Of a stretch of 6,370 nucleotides of DNA, positions 1-6,370 are shown one piece after another. Position 1 is the first letter of the stretch. Each line of letters begins with the position of its first letter. The notes beneath the pieces are model-generated. The model was not told where the DNA came from. It saw only the letters and a program-made list of their open reading frames with translations, and did no database searches. The stretch is taken from positions 1 to 6,370 of the IMG/VR virus record IMGVR_UViG_2778261687_000002. One strand, 5' to 3'. Made by a program: the position numbers and the translations under genes. This stretch comes from a virus. Lineage: Duplodnaviria > Heunggongvirae > Uroviricota > Caudoviricetes.

Positions 1-77
1 TGTTTTTGTCATGTGAGTCACCTCTGACTGAGAGTTTACTCACTTAGCCGCGTGTCCACTATTGCTGGGTAAGATCA
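1..77 (-). mobile_element. IS3-type insertion sequence, left end only (terminal inverted repeat, leader, first four codons of orfA); the element continues beyond the window start
   Basis: Reverse complement of 1..77 reads TGATCTTACCCAGCAATAGTGGACACGCGGCTAAGTGAGTAAACTCTCAGTCAGAGGTGACTCACATGACAAAAACA, which I recognise from memory as the IS3 left terminus (TG...CA-type end), followed by a GAGGTGA ribosome-binding site and ATG ACA AAA ACA (MTKT, the OrfA/InsE start) at 12..1 on the minus strand. Not verified by search. Confidence 0.75.
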
Positions 78-410
78 TGGATCGTACTTTAGGATATTTG
101 GGAAGTAGAATTGCTGTGAGCCATATGCGTCATACACAGCCATTGAATGACCTTCAACAGTTACAAATTTCGCAATTTGCCCGTTGTATACTGGATACCC
201 TCCAGCATTGATAACGATAGGCTGTGCAACAGGTATGTGCGTTCCATTTTCGTTTTCCAGATAAACCTGAATCTGGTTTTCAGGATTTACCGGGTCCGTG
301 TCAATTTTACCGATATAAATTTTGCCATTGGCTACGGCTTTAAAAGAACGAGCCATAGTGAAGAGTTGCGAAGGCATGCTTACTACAACATTAGCTGTAA
401 TGTCTGTCAT
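75..410 (-). pseudogene. P22-like tailspike, N-terminal head-binding domain only (111 aa), truncated by the IS3 end
   Basis: Translation [42 protein letters not shown]...LKYDP closely matches the P22 gp9 head-binding domain as I recall it. GGAG lies 8 nt upstream of the ATG at 410. The TGA stop at 77..75 is formed by the first three bases of the IS3 terminus. A full tailspike is about 650-700 aa. Confidence 0.85.
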
Positions 411-468
411 TTAATTTGCTCCAGATACAAGGAATCACCGAAGCATGGCTACGGTGAATTTTGGGCAT

Positions 469-491
469 AAAAAAACCCAGCCGAAGCTGGG
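469..491 (-). terminator. Rho-independent terminator (minus strand) upstream of the tailspike start
   Basis: Minus strand reads CCCAGC-TTCG-GCTGGG followed by TTTTTTT: a 6-7 bp GC-rich stem, tetraloop and U-tract. Plus-strand stem is 476..491 with the A-run at 469..475. Confidence 0.6.
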
Positions 492-543
492 TCGTTGCGT
501 TGGTTATCTGTCAGTAGTTATGTACTGGCTGAAGGATTTGTAC

Positions 544-574
544 AAAAAAACCACCTGACGGTGGGTTAATTTTT
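544..574 (-). terminator. Second hairpin terminator, mainly minus-strand, possibly bidirectional
   Basis: Stem CCACC (551..555), loop TGAC, stem GGTGG (560..564). Flanked by AAAAAAA (544..550), which gives a 7-U tract on the minus strand, and by GTTAATTTTT on the plus strand. The stem is short (5 bp). Confidence 0.45.
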
Positions 575-592
575 GCATTTACCTGGGCCATA

Positions 593-621
593 TTGACTAC
601 TTATAAAATGAGATCAATATT
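593..621 (+). promoter_or_regulatory. Candidate sigma70 promoter for the YjzC-like gene
   Basis: TTGACT at 593..598, a 17 nt spacer, then AATATT at 616..621 (4/6 match to TATAAT), about 35 nt upstream of the ATG at 658. Pattern match only. Confidence 0.25.
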
Positions 622-657
622 TAATCGCCCAATAACGGGTGTATGTTGAGGTATATC

Positions 658-837
658 ATGGCGAAAAAACCAGGTGAAAACACAGGAAAAAACGGCGGAA
701 TATACCAAGAAGTTGGCCCACGCGGCGGTAAGAAAGACAATTTTGCCACCGTCAAGGACAACGAAAGGCTTCCACCAACAACAAAGCCAGGTCATGGCTG
801 GGTATTGGATAAGCGAACTCCAGACAGCAAAAAGTAA
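658..837 (+). CDS. YjzC-like small protein (59 aa), accessory gene
   Basis: MAKKPGENTGKNGGIYQEVGPRGGKKDNFATVKDNERLPPTTKPGHGWVLDKRTPDSKK fits the YjzC-like small-protein pattern as I recall it (KPGE..G.Y.EVGPRGG...TV.....LPPT.KPG..W). GAGGT lies 5 nt upstream of the ATG at 658. The ORF-track start at 643 has no ribosome-binding site. A terminator follows directly. Confidence 0.7.
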   Translation: MAKKPGENTGKNGGIYQEVGPRGGKKDNFATVKDNERLPPTTKPGHGWVLDKRTPDSKK

Positions 838-843
838 TAATCA

Positions 844-866
844 AGCCGGTTCACTCCGGCTTTTTG
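844..866 (+). terminator. Rho-independent terminator of the YjzC-like gene
   Basis: AGCCGG-TTCACT-CCGGCT followed by TTTT, starting 7 nt after the TAA stop. It overlaps the last four codons of the convergent minus-strand gene. Confidence 0.55.
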
Positions 867-1216
867 ATATGTCGCTCGCAGAACTCAACAAGCCTGCTCA
901 TTAAGTAGCAGTAAGTCTCGTTGGCTCTTCCTGGTTCAACATCAACACCTACCCTTGAGCAGATATCGAATGCCATGTGAGCGCACTCATGGGCAATAGT
1001 AGATAGTTTGCCATTGAACACGCCTATCACATGCAAAACACCATTCTCGCTACTCATTGTATGAGACGCTCCGTTGGCGTCCGAGTCATGCACGTCAACG
1101 CCAAGTTTTTGATGCAGGCGTTGCCATTCTGGAAAGTCTCTACAAAACACAATTGTACCGCTCTCAAAGAGCGGAACGAGCATCTTTGGTACGTTTCCAA
1201 TGTTAACTTTTTTCAT
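851..1216 (-). CDS. HExxH zinc-metallopeptidase-like protein (121 aa), ImmA/IrrE- or SprT-like by motif only
   Basis: Intact 121-codon ORF containing [15 protein letters not shown], a hydrophobic-xx-HExxH-hydrophobic zincin motif, with downstream acidic residues ([10 protein letters not shown]). No strong ribosome-binding site (AGGA 4 nt before the ATG). Family assignment is from the motif alone. Confidence 0.55.
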
Positions 1217-1246
1217 GGTATCCTGCGCAAAACTAAGGAGGTTGGT

Positions 1247-1741
1247 GTGTCTGATTCTATGAGTTACGCTGTGCTAGTTGCCGCAACTCTATTTATGGGG
1301 ATAGGGTTGCAGATTGCGTGGTTCTTTTTTTCTAGTTTTATTAAACGCAAAAGAATTGAATCAAGGATATCTGAGATTTCTATTGCTATAGGGAAAAATG
1401 CTGAAAATCCAGAGAATGAGGCCTGCGCACTGAATTACCTTAAAGAAAAGTTTTCCCCTGAAAAATTTGAAAATAGAATTACTGATGCTCTTGGATTGGT
1501 AATATCAGTAATTCATATGCCACTAAGTTTGCTGATAACAGTGTGGTACTTCGCCATGATCGCCGGAAGAATATTTGGTTTCATGAATATAGAGCCTGTA
1601 GTTCTTTGGGTTCCAATGATACTGCAACTGTTGTTAAGCGTTGCTATCTTTATTTTTTCTGTTTTTATAAAAATTGTCTTTGGAAGATACCCCGGAGAAG
1701 CTAAGGGATTTAATAAAGAATTCATAAAAACTATAAAATAA
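1247..1741 (+). CDS. AT-rich small inner-membrane protein (about 164 aa, three predicted transmembrane helices), in the sieA-equivalent position
   Basis: Strong ribosome-binding site TAAGGAGG at 1234..1241, 5 nt before an in-frame GTG at 1247 (the ATG at 1259 is an alternative start). Hydrophobic segments [45 protein letters not shown] and [31 protein letters not shown] content is visibly lower (about 35%) than the flanks. The ORF-track N-terminal extension from 1031 lies upstream of the ribosome-binding site and overlaps the HExxH gene. Confidence 0.7.
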
Positions 1742-1763
1742 ATGCCGTCCTTGGCTTACAGTG

Positions 1764-2912
1764 CTACTGCCGGGTCGCTTCGTTAGCTAAGAGCGGGCGC
1801 ACGGCAGTAGCAGCCTGATTTAGCGCTCTTTCATAAGCTGGCGTTCCAGCTTTAGTGTTTGCCAGACGTAAGAGCGCATTCCTTGCTGCTTTGGACTCAT
1901 ACAAACGCATCATTGCACCAAAACCAGCCTCAAGCCCCATTGATACTCCAAGAGTCGCAGTTGCGCCAATCGTCCTTATCCTGTTGGCTTGTGATTGCCC
2001 CGTCTGAGTTACTACATTTGCGGTGTCTGACCTTGCTGTTTGCTGTAGAACTTCATGAAGAGCATCAAGCTCTTTCATGTGCTTTCCAGAAAAAATAGTG
2101 TTGTAAATTTCACCGCCTGACTGAGATTTAAGCTTATTAACTTCAGTGATGAACTTGGCTGGAGAGTCACCGGCCTTTTCCGCTATTTTGCTGACGTAAG
2201 CTGCACGCATAGCATCTTTCCCTTTATCATCCAATGCGCTCCAGATTCGTTTCACGTCAGATGGTTTTCTGCTTAATACAACGGTATTTATAAGTTCAGG
2301 ACTGGCTTCACTGCTTGCCTTGTTGAGCTTGTTAGCAATGTTTTTATTAAGCACCTTATTATAAACGTTTGCATAATCGGAGTTTGCTTTAAGGTATTTT
2401 GCTGCGTCTGATGCACCAAGGTTTTTTGCAACTGCGTTACGAAGATCTTTTGACATTGCATTCTCTACCATATTGGTAGCTGCTTTTGCCTGGTTTGGGA
2501 AGACCATAGCATCTCCCTGAACATTAGATCTAAATGCTGTTCTGTGCTGACGCAAGAGATCAAACGTAACATCCAAATCAGTTGCAGGGTTTGCTAATTC
2601 TTCGCGTAGGTTACGCAAGGATGTAAGCAGACTTTGATTGGCAGACGTCCCAAGCCGTTCCTGTCTTGCGATCGCTGTATTCAGAGCATTCATGGTATTT
2701 GTGGTATCAACTGCGGCATTACCCATTTTATTGGTGACGTCATTGATAACAGCGCCAGCGGCATCCTTCCGCCCCCTTAACGTGGTGGTCAGAGATTTCA
2801 CCACATCATCAGGGTTGTACTCACCAAAACGGTCAAAATAATTGCTTACCAGCTTACTACGCGTTGCATATTGCTCCGCTCGCTTTGAGCCTGTCCCGAG
2901 CAAAGCCCCCTC
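1764..2912 (-). CDS. Phage virion/ejection-protein-like C-terminal region (Ala/Asn/Lys-rich; possibly P22 gp16-like by position), lacking its own start and fused in frame to the ninG fragment
   Basis: Long open frame with low-complexity, helical composition typical of phage injection or tail-associated proteins. No ATG with a ribosome-binding site; the ORF-track start at 2903 is a TTG inside a continuous frame that stays open up to 3143. The gp16-like assignment rests on synteny (next to the sieA-like gene and tailspike), not on recalled sequence identity. Confidence 0.45.
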
Positions 2913-3107
2913 GGCATCCCACTGAGCAGACGTGAGCGTTCCGCACGAGATACATGGTAAGTCGCGGTCTCTTTCTCTGATGAAGGCGTTTACGGCTTGT
3001 TGGGCTTGTTTAATCCAGTAACTGCGGGGCTTTAAGGCGAGTTTTCGAATCTTAAGTTTATCTTTCTGTTTCTGCTCCTCTCGTCGCCGTTTCTTCTCTG
3101 CTGCTTT
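2913..3107 (-). pseudogene. ninG: ninG (Rap-like) internal fragment, in frame with the downstream virion-protein-like ORF
   Basis: The same minus-strand frame translates as [65 protein letters not shown], matching lambda NinG as I recall it. Homology stops at ...AQWDA (lambda continues GHYR...) and there is a TGA just upstream at 3146..3144. Both N- and C-terminal parts of NinG are missing. Confidence 0.6.
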
Positions 3108-3421
3108 TCCCGATAGAGCATGATGATTGAGTCTGCGTCCTGCTCAATGCTTCCTGAATCACGCAAATCTGCGTTTGTCGGGCGTTTGTTTGGTCGCTTC
3201 TCAACATCGCGCGAAAGCTGACTCAGGGAGATAACAGGCGTTTTCAGGTCTTTCGCCATCGCCTTCAGGCTTCCTGAGATGTGAGCAATTGCGAGGTCGT
3301 TGCGGTCTGCTTTCGGCTTCTCAATCAGGCCAAGATAATCCGCCATGATGAGTGACAGGTTTGGATTTTCCTGTTTGTGCCGTTCTGCGATTGAGCGTAT
3401 TTCTTCGACCGATACCCAATG
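3032..3421 (-). pseudogene. DnaB-family replicative helicase, C-terminal fragment (P22 gene 12 / lambda P-region type)
   Basis: Minus-strand frame reads ...[33 protein letters not shown]...[63 protein letters not shown], which is the DnaB C-terminal signature region. The N-terminal roughly 300 aa (Walker motifs) are absent. After LYRE the frame diverges into the ninG sequence read out of frame ([24 protein letters not shown], stop). The ORF-track start at 3346 is an internal Met. Confidence 0.7.
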
Positions 3422-3571
3422 TCCGATAGCTCCCTGTGTGCATCCAACTGCCTTAAGCCTGAAGAAATGTTTCCTGTAATGGAAGATGGGAAATATGTCG
3501 ATAAATGGGCAATACGAACGACGGCAATGATTGCCAGAGAACTTGGTAAACAGAATAACAAGGCTGCCTGA
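3419..3571 (+). CDS. Small plus-strand ORF (50 aa from the ATG at 3419; 34 aa from the ATG at 3467), possibly the 3' remnant of a truncated gene
   Basis: [50 protein letters not shown]. No convincing ribosome-binding site. The TGA stop (3569..3571) sits in the loop of the hairpin terminator that follows. Below the ORF-track size cut-off. Confidence 0.25.
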
Positions 3572-3589
3572 TGGTGGCCTTTATTTTTT
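3562..3589 (+). terminator. Candidate rho-independent terminator (plus strand)
   Basis: GGCTGCC-TGAT-GGTGGCC (7 bp stem with two G:U pairs) followed by TTTATTTTTT. Confidence 0.4.
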
Positions 3590-3630
3590 GGCCGTAAATA
3601 ATTTCATGCTTATTACAATCAAGGGGATAT

Positions 3631-3996
3631 ATGGAAGAACAAGCAAACAAGATTCTCGTAGAACTACTGCAAAAAGCCAGTAATGGAATAGACGCGGCTG
3701 TTTCATTTAGCCAGGCACAGATTCCTGATGTCATCCATCAGCTTTTGATGTGGCACGCCGTATCATCAGCTGGAATTCAGGCTATCTGTGTATTGGTGAT
3801 TATAGCGTGTGTTTATCTGATGATTTTTGCATGGAATAAAGGAGATGATGCGGATGTTGTTCTTTTATCGCTACTTGTAACATCAGGAATAGCGATTACT
3901 TCTATTGTTGTTTTCTTCAATTATTTCGACTGGCTGAAAATCTGGCTTGCTCCAAAACTTTACCTTATCGAATATGCAGCATCATTGGTTAAGTAA
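3631..3996 (+). CDS. Small membrane protein (121 aa, two predicted transmembrane helices), unknown function; superinfection-exclusion or holin-like candidate
   Basis: Ribosome-binding site AGGGG 4 nt before the ATG. Soluble N-terminal roughly 45 aa, then hydrophobic helices GIQAICVLVIIACVYLMIFAW and VVLLSLLVTSGIAITSIVVFFNYF. Followed by a clean terminator. Moderately AT-rich. Confidence 0.65.
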   Translation: MEEQANKILVELLQKASNGIDAAVSFSQAQIPDVIHQLLMWHAVSSAGIQAICVLVIIACVYLMIFAWNKGDDADVVLLSLLVTSGIAITSIVVFFNYFDWLKIWLAPKLYLIEYAASLVK

Positions 3997-4000
3997 TTTC

Positions 4001-4026
4001 AGGCCGCATAGTCGGCCTTCATTTTT
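4001..4026 (+). terminator. Rho-independent terminator of the 121-aa membrane protein gene
   Basis: AGGCCG-CATAGT-CGGCCT (6 bp stem) followed by TCATTTTT, starting 5 nt after the TAA stop. Confidence 0.6.
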
Positions 4027-4089
4027 GGCATAAACAACAGAATAAACACTGCACTGTGTATTCATTCCAACGAGTGAATATCTGAGGTT

Positions 4090-4293
4090 TTGAAACGCAC
4101 TGGCTATAGCAAGGCGTGGGTATATGCTCTGATGAGCCGAGGACAATTCCCTCAATCAGTCAAGATTGGTGCTCGCGCAATAGCTTTTATTGAAAGCGAG
4201 ATCGATGACTGGATCGATCAACGTATAGCCGAATCGCGTAGTAACAAAGAACAGAAACAAACCGGATACAAACAATACGTTATTAGGTATTAA
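4090..4293 (+). CDS. alpA: AlpA/Vis-family winged-helix DNA-binding protein (prophage regulatory protein / excisionase-like), apparently N-terminally shortened
   Basis: (ISEV)LKRTGYSKAWVYALMSRGQFPQSVKIGARAIAFIESEIDDWI matches the AlpA/P4 Vis pattern (..EV...TGLSRSTIY.L...G.FP.PVK.G.R.V.W...E...W). The only in-frame start after the TGA at 4075..4077 is the TTG at 4090; the usual leading residues of the family are missing. Confidence 0.6.
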   Translation: MKRTGYSKAWVYALMSRGQFPQSVKIGARAIAFIESEIDDWIDQRIAESRSNKEQKQTGYKQYVIRY

Positions 4294-4295
4294 GA

Positions 4296-4487
4296 ATGCA
4301 GTTGACCCCCACCAATCAAAAGCTGAACGTAACCCATGTTGATTTTGAGACCTTCGCGGAACTGATTAGATCAGATCCACAAAAGGTAAGCACCAGCACC
4401 TGGGTTTATGATGTGAAATCCACCAACGGTGGAAAAGCTATCGGCATTGTCTCTGGCGATGATTACTTAGTAATCGATCTGATTTAA
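4296..4487 (+). CDS. Hypothetical small protein (63 aa), translationally coupled to the alpA-like gene
   Basis: AGGT ribosome-binding site 7 nt before the ATG, which is 2 nt after the alpA-like stop. No recognisable motif. Confidence 0.5.
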   Translation: MQLTPTNQKLNVTHVDFETFAELIRSDPQKVSTSTWVYDVKSTNGGKAIGIVSGDDYLVIDLI

Positions 4488-4513
4488 TCACACAAAAATT
4501 GTAGAGTGATTTG

Positions 4514-4532
4514 GGAAGACAGGAAGTCTTCC
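4514..4532. promoter_or_regulatory. Perfect 7 bp inverted repeat with 5 nt spacer (GGAAGAC-AGGAA-GTCTTCC); candidate operator or weak terminator
   Basis: Seen directly in the intergenic region between the 63-aa ORF and the HTH gene, about 40 bp upstream of the ATG at 4570. No clean U-tract follows. Confidence 0.35.
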
Positions 4533-4569
4533 TCCGTATTGCATTTTGGTACAACAGTAAGGGAATAAA

Positions 4570-4764
4570 ATGATTAATTATCTGACCGCTAAAGACGCAG
4601 CAGAATATCTTGGTGTCTGTCTATCACGCTTCTATCAGTTAAAGCGATATATCCCCAGCTTTCCCCCCTATGTAAATCAGACCATCAATGGACGCAAGCG
4701 CAGAGTGTGGCTTGCCTCCAGCCTTGATCAATTTGCCGACAGATTTCTGGGGGGACGAAAATGA
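4570..4764 (+). CDS. Excisionase/AlpA-type helix-turn-helix (HTH_17-like) DNA-binding protein, 64 aa
   Basis: Ribosome-binding site AAGGGA 5 nt before the ATG. LTAKDAAEYLGVCLSRFYQLKR...GRKRRVWLASSLDQFADRF follows the Xis/AlpA winged-helix pattern (LT.keaAeyLGvs..t.Y.l......P.....G.r.rW....ld.w). Confidence 0.65.
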   Translation: MINYLTAKDAAEYLGVCLSRFYQLKRYIPSFPPYVNQTINGRKRRVWLASSLDQFADRFLGGRK

Positions 4765-5147
4765 GCACTCTTACACGTACTCAGGTCGCCGCAAATATAC
4801 GCGATAGCCTACTAAGTGGCAGGAAGCTTACCCCAAAGGAGTTTGATGACATATTAAGGAAAGCAGGAAATCACGAACGTAGTCGCGTTTTAACGCTGTT
4901 ACGCAACGATTGGGGAATTCCTGTTGAACAGTGTAAAACAGGGGCGTATCACGTCACAGAACGCAACTTAGAAGCATACCACAGCGATAAAGACGAAACA
5001 TTGAAGCTCTGGAGGACGAACGCCAGATATGTAAAGACATTGCGTAAGGTAAACATAACGTTGTCGTTGTTGCGTGGGCTGGTGGGCAAAGTGCCTGAAG
5101 ACACGCTTAGAACTATTTACAAGGGTATTGAAACCAAATACCTGTGA
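4761..5147 (+). CDS. Hypothetical protein (128 aa), translationally coupled (ATGA overlap) to the upstream HTH gene
   Basis: Start ATG overlaps the upstream stop (ATGA at 4761..4764). GGGGGA ribosome-binding site 5 nt upstream. No motif recognised. Confidence 0.6.
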   Translation: MSTLTRTQVAANIRDSLLSGRKLTPKEFDDILRKAGNHERSRVLTLLRNDWGIPVEQCKTGAYHVTERNLEAYHSDKDETLKLWRTNARYVKTLRKVNITLSLLRGLVGKVPEDTLRTIYKGIETKYL

Positions 5148-5159
5148 TTGACAAAGTAG

Positions 5160-5186
5160 AAAGCCGACTTTGCGAGAGTCGGCTTT
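5160..5186 (+). terminator. Strong hairpin (10 bp stem AAAGCCGACT / AGTCGGCTTT, 7 nt loop) just after the 128-aa ORF; candidate terminator, possibly bidirectional
   Basis: Perfect 10 bp stem seen directly. The U-tract is only 3 nt, contributed by the stem arm. A TTGACA hexamer at 5148..5153 immediately precedes it. Confidence 0.45.
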
Positions 5187-5215
5187 GAATCAATTGAAAT
5201 ATATGAATTTTACAC

Positions 5216-6268
5216 ATGGAATTATACGATAAAGACGCGAGTCTATCCACAAAATCACAAGCCGTAATCAATCGCATCAATGGTCGAACCTTAGCTTATG
5301 TGAAATCAGTTAAGTACAAACGTAATGAATTAAAGGCGGAGAATAAACGACAATCATCAAAGGCTAACCACTGCATACCACCAGCCTGGACAAAGAGGAA
5401 ATGGCGTACAATGAGGCGAGCTTTGTTTACTCTGGATGTCGAATCAACTAGTGGTATCCCCTACTCCTTTACCTTCAGACCCGTTAAGGGAACAACGCCA
5501 GAGAAATTCAACAAAGCGTTAAAGGCACTTACCAGATGGTTGACTTCGAAAGGCAATCAGTGGGTTTACGTCATGGAGTGGGCTCGACACCAGTCAGAGC
5601 CGCATGTACACGCAATAATCATGGTGAACGAAAGAAGCATTAATGGGCAAGCTGGCAAAATTGTCAGCAAATGGGTAACACTGGCAAACAATGCAATCCC
5701 ATCAAATGTTCCTCCTCAGTGGGATCTAGATTTGAAAGGTCAGCAATATTCAGAGCCTACAAAGTGTATAGGTAAACAGATTGATTACATGGCAAAGCCC
5801 GAAACTAAGTTAAATGACTTTAATAGAGAGGCGAGCAAGAGCCTATATGATTGGTCAGATGCCACCGTTTGGGGTTATTCGAATGGCTGGGCGCGGCATG
5901 AGATAAAAAAAGAAACACTTTCTATCACTGGCTTTCATGCTGTAAGACGCATACTAAAAGCCATTCAGGCATCAAGGAAAGACAACTACAAAGTTAAGCG
6001 ACAGATACAGCGTACATTGAAACGACAAGACATAAATCGCTCACCAATCACCCCATTCCAAGCACCGTTAATTAGCAAACACGATTGGGATTTATCAGTG
6101 ATAGCGGTCACCAAAGAGGCAGAGACAGAGCGCAGGGAGTTACTATCCTCACAGATAATAAACTCGAACAAAGTACAAACCTACCCGCTGTTAAGGATGT
6201 TAAGAAAAGCACGAGTGAGAGCATCAAGAGCCAGAAGAGAAAGCGGAGGTTATGACCTTTACTACTAG
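5216..6268 (+). CDS. Putative HUH-type rolling-circle replication initiator (Rep), 350 aa; compare inovirus gene II-like or CP4-57 YfjI-like proteins found next to alpA
   Basis: Long ORF with motif I-like FTLD (aa 71-74), HUH motif EPHVHAIIMV (aa 128-137) and a YxxK tyrosine motif QIDYMAKPETK (aa 188-198), each about 59 aa apart, with a basic C-terminal tail. No ribosome-binding site before the ATG at 5216, so the start is uncertain. Function inferred from motifs only. Confidence 0.5.
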   Translation: MELYDKDASLSTKSQAVINRINGRTLAYVKSVKYKRNELKAENKRQSSKANHCIPPAWTKRKWRTMRRALFTLDVESTSGIPYSFTFRPVKGTTPEKFNKALKALTRWLTSKGNQWVYVMEWARHQSEPHVHAIIMVNERSINGQAGKIVSKWVTLANNAIPSNVPPQWDLDLKGQQYSEPTKCIGKQIDYMAKPETKLNDFNREASKSLYDWSDATVWGYSNGWARHEIKKETLSITGFHAVRRILKAIQASRKDNYKVKRQIQRTLKRQDINRSPITPFQAPLISKHDWDLSVIAVTKEAETERRELLSSQIINSNKVQTYPLLRMLRKARVRASRARRESGGYDLYY

Positions 6269-6370
6269 TAGTGACAGATCGTGACAAGGCTGTGGCTTTG
6301 TTGAATAAATCAGATTTCGGGTAAGTCTCCCCCGTAGCGGGTTGTGTTTTCAGGCAATACGCACGCTTTC

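Follow-up and report, generated by a model that had tools for sequence, protein, structure and literature searches.

The 6,370-nucleotide stretch analyzed here (positions 1 to 6,370 of IMG/VR record IMGVR_UViG_2778261687_000002, class Caudoviricetes; hereafter the window) carries two divergent open reading frames (ORFs), hkcC and sieA, at positions 851–1741. This interval is very probably the sieA-hkcC part of a P22-type "ant moron", lying in a decayed P22-like prophage remnant of Escherichia/Salmonella type, with HkcC taking no part in the exclusion exerted by SieA. Both genes and their neighborhood were already known, and a new two-gene defense system was not found. The remaining interest is modest and concerns a widespread family of zincin-like phage proteins and a site of cargo exchange. 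The comparisons below show directly what the genes are, how well they are conserved, that cargo is swapped and that the HkcC motif is invariant; the mechanism of SieA comes from the literature, and the catalysis, timing and target given for HkcC are proposals.

Identity of the interval

Positions 600–1800 of the window were 96.5% identical to phage P22, and more than 40 P22-like Salmonella phages matched likewise. Both hkcC and sieA are open frames well beyond chance expectation. The annotations of P22, UAB_Phi20 and HK620 place the sieA/hkcC/orf59a region here. The same three genes are assigned to the "ant moron" in Villafane 2008, which describes the interval between gene 16 and gene 9 (tailspike) as being in rapid flux. 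In the window, sieA is flanked by homologues of these two genes and runs antisense to the late operon.

An initial annotation, made from the sequence alone, had read the interval differently, as an HExxH protein and a membrane protein that might together form a superinfection-exclusion or abortive-infection module. Its description of the DNA was accurate: both ORFs, their lengths and divergent arrangement, the HExxH motif, the strong ribosome-binding site, the 30-bp gap and the three helices were all found. It also rightly saw an exclusion hotspot. The features of the region are as follows.

75–410, minus strand: tailspike gene, head-binding domain only, 111 amino acids (Pfam Head_binding, E = 1.7e-65), cut by an IS3 end
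658–837, plus strand: orf59a, 59-amino-acid YjzC-like protein, 98% identical to P22 Orf59a (phrog_3202, E = 1.3e-31), convergent with hkcC
843–862: hairpin AAGCCGG-TTCACT-CCGGCTT, equivalent of the bidirectional terminator tORF59A/tMnt, overlapping the last hkcC codons and the stop codon
851–1216, minus strand: hkcC, 121-amino-acid soluble protein, putative minimal zincin (SprT-like), HECAH at residues 76–80
917–919: E100 codon of hkcC
977–991: HECAH codons of hkcC
1186–1216, plus strand: putative PsieA promoter, falling in antisense within the opening 10 codons of hkcC, placed by the promoter annotated in NC_002371.2
1235–1249, plus strand: translation-start cassette, with AAGGAGG at 1235–1241, a 5-nucleotide spacer and GTG at 1247–1249
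1247–1741, plus strand: sieA, type-A SieA of 164 amino acids with a GTG start, predicted three-helix inner-membrane protein
1764–2919, minus strand: homologue of gene 16 (ejection/DNA-transfer protein), 3' two-thirds, with the 5' third missing

The membrane protein is SieA

Homology identifies the membrane protein as a canonical type-A SieA. It shared 151 of 164 residues (92%) with P22 SieA, which has the same length, and was 98–99% identical to SieA alleles of E. coli prophages. The PHROG family phrog_7745 ("superinfection exclusion SieA-like") matched it over all 164 residues (1–164, E = 9.2e-109). The P22 protein was reportedly the subject of a 1995 study by Hofer on type A superinfection exclusion. 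Residues 145–157 hold the type-A motif FxRYPxEAxxFNK, which is conserved and cytoplasmic (Leavitt 2024, PMC10883804). A Kyte-Doolittle scan, the topology check proposed by the initial annotation, gave three hydrophobic stretches (~5–32, 78–113 and 114–150), in agreement with the published topology figure of three predicted transmembrane helices and no signal peptide (PMC10883804). As in P22, the gene lies between gene 16 and gene 9, faces the same way and starts at a GTG behind the same ribosome-binding site.

The expectation of an exclusion protein was therefore borne out, in the form of SieA itself. The pair does not stand "instead" of sieA, and neither protein is unassignable, the neighbor being the named ORF hkcC of HK620 and P22. 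The initial annotation had named a canonical SieA next to a known immI component as the outcome that would speak against its proposal; the first half of this was found, with hkcC as the neighbor.

P22 SieA alone blocks DNA injection, and only by superinfecting P22-like phages; escape mutations fall in the C-terminal regions of gp16 and gp20 (PMC10883804). Transferred to the window by way of the 92% identity, this mechanism would make SieA an inner-membrane protein, produced from the prophage, that most probably acts at the inner membrane by disturbing the gp20/gp16 trans-envelope conduit.

Cargo exchange opposite hkcC

Loci were compared in a set of 80 from IMG/VR (L030–L109), chosen by an HkcC 98–100% identical to that of the window, and the ORFs divergent from hkcC were clustered after trimming a shared antisense N-terminal extension. 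This slot held 12 unrelated ORF families. They include SieA (12 loci), HkcB (8), a 161-amino-acid lipoprotein (18), a 129-amino-acid secreted protein (12) and a 75-amino-acid membrane protein with two helices (8). The stretch corresponding to 1235–1249 was identical in 10 of the 12 families, whose ORFs all start at the same GTG, 30 bp from the hkcC ATG, and the spacing between the divergent start codons in the window is exactly 30 bp (1217–1246). DNA homology across the cargo variants takes in AAGGAGG and the GTG and ends directly after it (at about 3960–4030 in the loci). The PsieA sequence was conserved in all variants.

As judged from these alignments, the sieA slot is a fixed expression platform (putative PsieA, ribosome-binding site and GTG) with exchangeable cargo, which explains the constant 30-bp divergent spacing. 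Exchange precise to the start codon is not described in the accessible part of the ant moron account of Villafane 2008. The comparison also bears on the SieA start codon, left uncertain in 2024 with 162 or 164 amino acids as the two options (PMC10883804). Unrelated cargos, some of them with N-terminal signal peptides, start at the same GTG, and the 164-amino-acid start of SieA is thereby favored.

Most cargos had a low guanine-cytosine (GC) content (0.35–0.41), and most had hydrophobic segments, an N-terminal signal-like sequence or a lipobox; the cargo genes are predicted to be mostly envelope-targeted. Eight of 10 alternative cargos fell into separate PHROG families of unknown function, and two had no PHROG match. 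The exchange site yields a list of 11 candidate exclusion proteins besides SieA, which would suit the same assay as SieA.

The initial annotation had suspected horizontal acquisition of the membrane gene from its low GC content. The drop is real (sieA 35.2%, hkcC 46.2%, gene 16 fragment 45.9%, whole window 43.7%), from flanks of ~46% rather than the ~50% it had given, and acquisition agrees with the gene being swapped cargo, present in 12 of the 80 loci and replaced by 11 unrelated genes elsewhere. Of the pair, which it had proposed to compare across prophages as possible variable cargo, only sieA varied, hkcC being constant with varied cargos opposite.

In one P22-like contig (L013), a gene for a 178-amino-acid ClpP-family protease (4349–4885, minus strand) stands beside an HkcB-like gene, between gene 16 and hkcC. 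It is a further cargo variant at this hotspot.

hkcC and sieA are not a functional pair

P22 sieA with 85 bp of upstream and 22 bp of downstream sequence, placed in galK, lowered the plating of P22 at least 10^7-fold (PMC10883804). These 85 bp take in only the first ~18 codons of hkcC. A construct without nearly all of hkcC therefore excludes P22, and hkcC is not needed for exclusion. The proteins HkcC, SieA and Orf59a had no match in PADLOC-DB at E ≤ 0.1. From the sufficiency of sieA, the cargo swapping opposite hkcC and the lack of PADLOC matches, it follows that hkcC and sieA are not a functional pair.

A two-component exclusion or abortive-infection module distinct from sieA/immI, as first proposed, would fit two divergent genes separated by only 30 bp at a hotspot known for exclusion, and a membrane gene that is low-GC cargo. 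We regard it as most improbable, given that the membrane protein is SieA itself, that sieA suffices with its short upstream sequence, that SieA faces hkcC in so few loci and 11 other cargos do so in the rest, and that relatives of hkcC occur in lytic phages and at other genome positions without SieA. The narrower idea of HkcC as a SieA cofactor was rejected on the same sufficiency of sieA and the same 12 of 80 loci.

hkcC is a conserved gene

The window HkcC was identical to the corresponding P22 ORF at 120 of 121 residues and to HK620 HkcC at 99.2% over all 121 residues (tblastn). It matched phrog_1365 (E = 1.7e-39), and the UAB_Phi20 record annotates the 121-amino-acid ORF as hkcC. In HK620 and P22 the gene has the same neighbors as in the window, orf59a and the terminator, with no notable difference.

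Homologues at 43–78% identity kept frame and length, with H76, E77, C78, H80, N99, E100 and T101 invariant. The pairwise nonsynonymous divergence (dN) was 0.15–0.44 and the synonymous divergence (dS) saturated; dN/dS was 0.08–0.12 in the two computable pairs (NG86). A profile search run exhaustively over 1.84 billion representatives returned 552 clusters at E ≤ 1e-3, 152 of them at E ≤ 1e-10, nearly all of ~110–130 amino acids, and homologues down to 23% identity kept both length and motif. Among 124 relatives at 23–44% identity, G49, H76 and H80 were conserved in 100%, E77 and E100 in 99%, Y104 in 96% and G90 in 91%. By this conservation, hkcC is a genuine gene subject to purifying selection. 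Two points on which the initial annotation had made its proposal depend, conservation of the ORF with a coding signal across homologues and conservation of the HExxH residues in relatives, were thus both found.

The gene whose coding sequence is missing from the P22 reference record is a member of a large phage family (~120 amino acids) with an invariant zincin signature. A second P22 entry, AB426868.1, is likewise without an hkcC coding-sequence annotation (P22 records, loci L009 and L001). In the original P22 sequence, AF217253.1, the hkcC ORF translates at only 72% identity, a figure that probably stems from sequencing errors later corrected in AY121861 "section C".

HkcC as a putative minimal zincin

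The 121-amino-acid protein had no hydrophobic stretch in its hydropathy profile. An AlphaFold2 model built from a 19-sequence alignment reached a predicted local distance difference test (pLDDT) score of 83.5 and a predicted template modeling (pTM) score of 0.78. The order of predicted elements is b-b-a-b-b-a-a, with strands at 11–13 and 21–25, a helix at 28–38, strands at 49–56 and 59–66, and helices at 71–88 and 100–116. This order resembles that of a minimal zincin. HExxH falls in the helix at 71–88, and E100, at the beginning of the last helix and 20 residues after H80, is a candidate third metal ligand. The same spacing between the second histidine and the glutamate is that of thermolysin-type gluzincins, a resemblance to H80–E100 and not a test of it. 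The minigluzincins proabylysin and projannalysin, soluble proteins of ~100 amino acids, resemble HkcC in size, beta/alpha topology, and the combination of HExxH with a downstream glutamate.

Several observations point to a distant likeness with the SprT-like/Spartan/Wss1 family (Pfam PF10263, clan Peptidase_MA). The model places the HExxH helix after a small beta-sheet with a backing helix. Of the 124 relatives, 18 had a weak match to Pfam SprT-like, with E = 1e-4 at best, and several other weak Pfam matches of relatives were also metallopeptidase families (DUF5700, DUF4344, Peptidase_M48, Reprolysin_2 and DA1-like). A Foldseek search of the model against BFVD gave 22 matches at E ≤ 1e-3, with template modeling (TM) scores of up to 0.85, from N4-like, T7-like and crAss-like viruses and from phages of Ralstonia, Erwinia, Serratia and Eggerthella. 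Few matches carried a name, namely "SprT-like" and "SprT-like family protein" (the latter at E = 1e-4, TMq 0.72) and, at E = 4e-3, "Metalloprotease".

Longer relatives of HkcC have C-terminal tails rich in lysine and arginine (for example ...KKGKRKPKAKDAYVPRVMSFKRG in phage mEp044), which recall DNA-dependent proteases. Such tails could bind DNA or a partner, and by analogy with SprT-type proteases they are compatible with an association with nucleic acid. Pfam scans of ten longer relatives found only these basic low-complexity tails and no fused domain. In P0065, P0068 and mEp044 (L008, 3501–4085) the basic tail ends in a conserved ...VPR(V/I)(M/A)(S/R)(F/Y)KR(G/W).

HkcC differs from the SprT-like/Spartan/Wss1 proteins in scoring below every curated threshold and in being without a zinc ribbon or a DNA-binding domain. 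It had no significant match to solved SprT-family structures: a Foldseek search of the model against the Protein Data Bank (PDB) gave none at E ≤ 1e-3, with SPRTN (6mdx) at E = 0.46. The third ligand is a histidine in Spartan/Wss1 and likely Glu100 in HkcC. On its motif and model, we infer HkcC to be a minimal zincin, soluble and distantly resembling SprT-like proteins, and a putative peptidase, which makes it a tractable candidate for a phage-encoded protease. The literature found on hkcC of P22 and HK620 contained no mention of the zincin signature.

Genomic context of hkcC and its link to orf59a

In P22-like phages, hkcC lies between gene 16 and gene 9 in late-operon orientation. Late transcripts read through the hkcC region to the tailspike gene, according to Villafane 2008. 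In phage L/ST64T (orf129) and the mEp lambdoid phages, distant relatives follow the lysis genes. The N4-like phages phCDa and Kpn16-P2 carry them amid small uncharacterized genes on the strand opposite the terminase cluster, and one stands at the genome end of an Aeromonas autographivirus. That relatives are found in strictly lytic phages disfavors roles confined to lysogeny, repressor cleavage among them, and would fit a function in host takeover or counter-defense. Literature searches for a phage SprT-like or HExxH counter-defense protein returned nothing relevant. HkcC would be a small zinc metallopeptidase of SprT-like kind, produced in the course of lytic growth, with a target that is possibly DNA-associated.

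The usual companion of hkcC was orf59a, convergent and directly downstream in 69 of the 80 P22-like loci, with 11 hkcC loci lacking it. It occupied the same place in all eight non-P22-like loci (L014–L021; HkcC 46–63% and Orf59a 64–81% identical), none of which had a homologue of P22 gene 16 or of the tailspike. Genes were called in five of them, from Rosenbergiella, Klebsiella and two metagenome contigs; these five lay in siphovirus-type tail clusters with tail-tube and tape-measure genes, and their HkcC relatives were of 57–63% identity; the Xenorhabdus, Proteus and Pasteurellaceae loci lay outside this context comparison. By its distribution, the partner of hkcC is orf59a, not sieA. Their linkage may have a function, which we rate as rather unlikely, or may simply result from a short block being inherited together.

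The Orf59a protein is soluble, basic and of YjzC type. Its match to Pfam YjzC (E = 0.0017) was below the threshold of that family, and a homologue in a Clostridium phage bears the annotation YjzC family protein. The hairpin between the two genes was called by a terminator scan, and its place agrees with the terminator features of HK620 and P22.

Alternative explanations

One alternative takes hkcC and orf59a as a mobile cassette with linked functions, in which the zincin would, for example, control, cleave or counteract lysogen-expressed Orf59a once late transcription starts. The adjacency in both locus sets speaks for it, as does the single hairpin common to both genes, which overlaps the hkcC stop codon, and the position of P22 orf59a downstream of mnt on the prophage-expressed strand. 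However, HkcC relatives at ≤42% identity have no 59a neighbor, YjzC-like genes stand alone in Firmicutes phages, 11 of the 80 P22-like loci have hkcC without orf59a, and co-inheritance of a short conserved DNA block could account for the linkage. We consider the cassette rather unlikely. A second possibility, which draws on an HExxH protein lying beside the P22 immI repressor genes, makes HkcC a protease of ImmA/IrrE type, with cleavage of a neighboring repressor (Mnt, Arc or C2) as its means of controlling immI or induction. Two "IrrE protein" entries did occur among the weak BFVD matches (E = 0.08–0.13); these fold matches are not significant, and no Pfam match to Peptidase_M78 was found for HkcC or its relatives. 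Since hkcC also occurs at 99–100% identity in loci without mnt, arc and ant (this window and HK620 among them), and its relatives in strictly lytic phages, this role is very unlikely. Scarcely credible is a non-functional hkcC, whose open frame would be a by-product of conserved regulatory DNA (PsieA, terminator) or of a recombination linker. Such a reading could draw on the P22 reference record and on the DNA being 98.4% identical to P22 versus 71% for gene 16. It conflicts with homologues at 23–78% identity that keep frame, length and the HExxH...E motif, with a dN far under the saturated dS, with a confident and compact AlphaFold2 model, and with homologues in unrelated contexts without PsieA.

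In place of these, the interval is best read as a known sieA-hkcC moron whose two genes act independently. A fuller version has HkcC as an active minimal SprT-like zincin by which many phages, temperate and lytic alike, destroy a DNA-associated host or defense protein, Orf59a traveling with it as a cassette in enterobacterial prophages, the promoter, ribosome-binding site and GTG at its 5' end as a plug-in site, and the 11 other envelope-directed cargos as uncharacterized superinfection-exclusion proteins; taken jointly, these proposals are speculative and we hold them only tentatively. A number of points weigh against the reading given here. For SieA, the window protein carries 13 substitutions relative to that of P22, and a simple consensus promoter scan did not call PsieA. 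For hkcC, the P22 RefSeq record NC_002371.2 annotates a promoter and a terminator and no coding sequence, and no phenotype or function was reported in the literature found. As for the zincin, only two of five AlphaFold2 models were confident, and HkcC itself had no Pfam, NCBIfam or PADLOC match above threshold. PDB sequence-profile searches with the 19- and 124-sequence alignments gave myroilysin as the best match at a non-significant E of 0.036; all matches, insignificant as they were, were to zinc metalloproteases. SieA and Orf59a, too, had no Pfam, NCBIfam or PADLOC match above threshold, and Pfam SprT-like was matched by relatives of HkcC only.

Surrounding prophage remnants

The stretch from hkcC/59a to the tailspike gene has the short HK620-like form, in which mnt, arc and ant are absent. 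Hairpins at 551–564 and 474–493 are remnants matching tMNT and tANT of HK620. The window differs from the ant moron of Villafane 2008 in combining this short form, with only the mnt/ant terminator remnants, with sieA. An IS3 end at 1–60 abuts the tailspike gene, which is cut to its 111-amino-acid head-binding domain followed by a stop codon. On the other side, the gene 16 fragment matched profile positions 267–663 of 668 in phrog_770, and its homology with intact E. coli prophages ends at 2919. The genes sieA, hkcC and orf59a are intact within this otherwise decayed P22-like segment.

No complete E. coli genome covered ≥80% of 2903–4080 or of the whole window, and Rfam and tRNA scans of the window gave no matches. 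Either prophage debris has been patched together here, or the locus is an assembly chimera. Beyond the end of gene 16 lies a DnaB C-terminal fragment (3032–3346, minus strand), followed from about 3453 by a lambdoid fragment that adjoins ral in other E. coli genomes. A 121-amino-acid ORF at 3631–3996 (plus strand) has no Pfam match and shows, by eye in its translation, two apparent hydrophobic stretches.

An island at 4079–6293 is 97–99% identical to islands in several E. coli genomes. It encodes an AlpA-family regulator (4090–4293), a second helix-turn-helix protein (4570–4764) and a 350-amino-acid rolling-circle Rep-like protein (5216–6268; Pfam REP_ORF2-G2P, E = 1.8e-6). In strain H1827/12, the AlpA/Rep island stands beside a similar hkcC/59a remnant.

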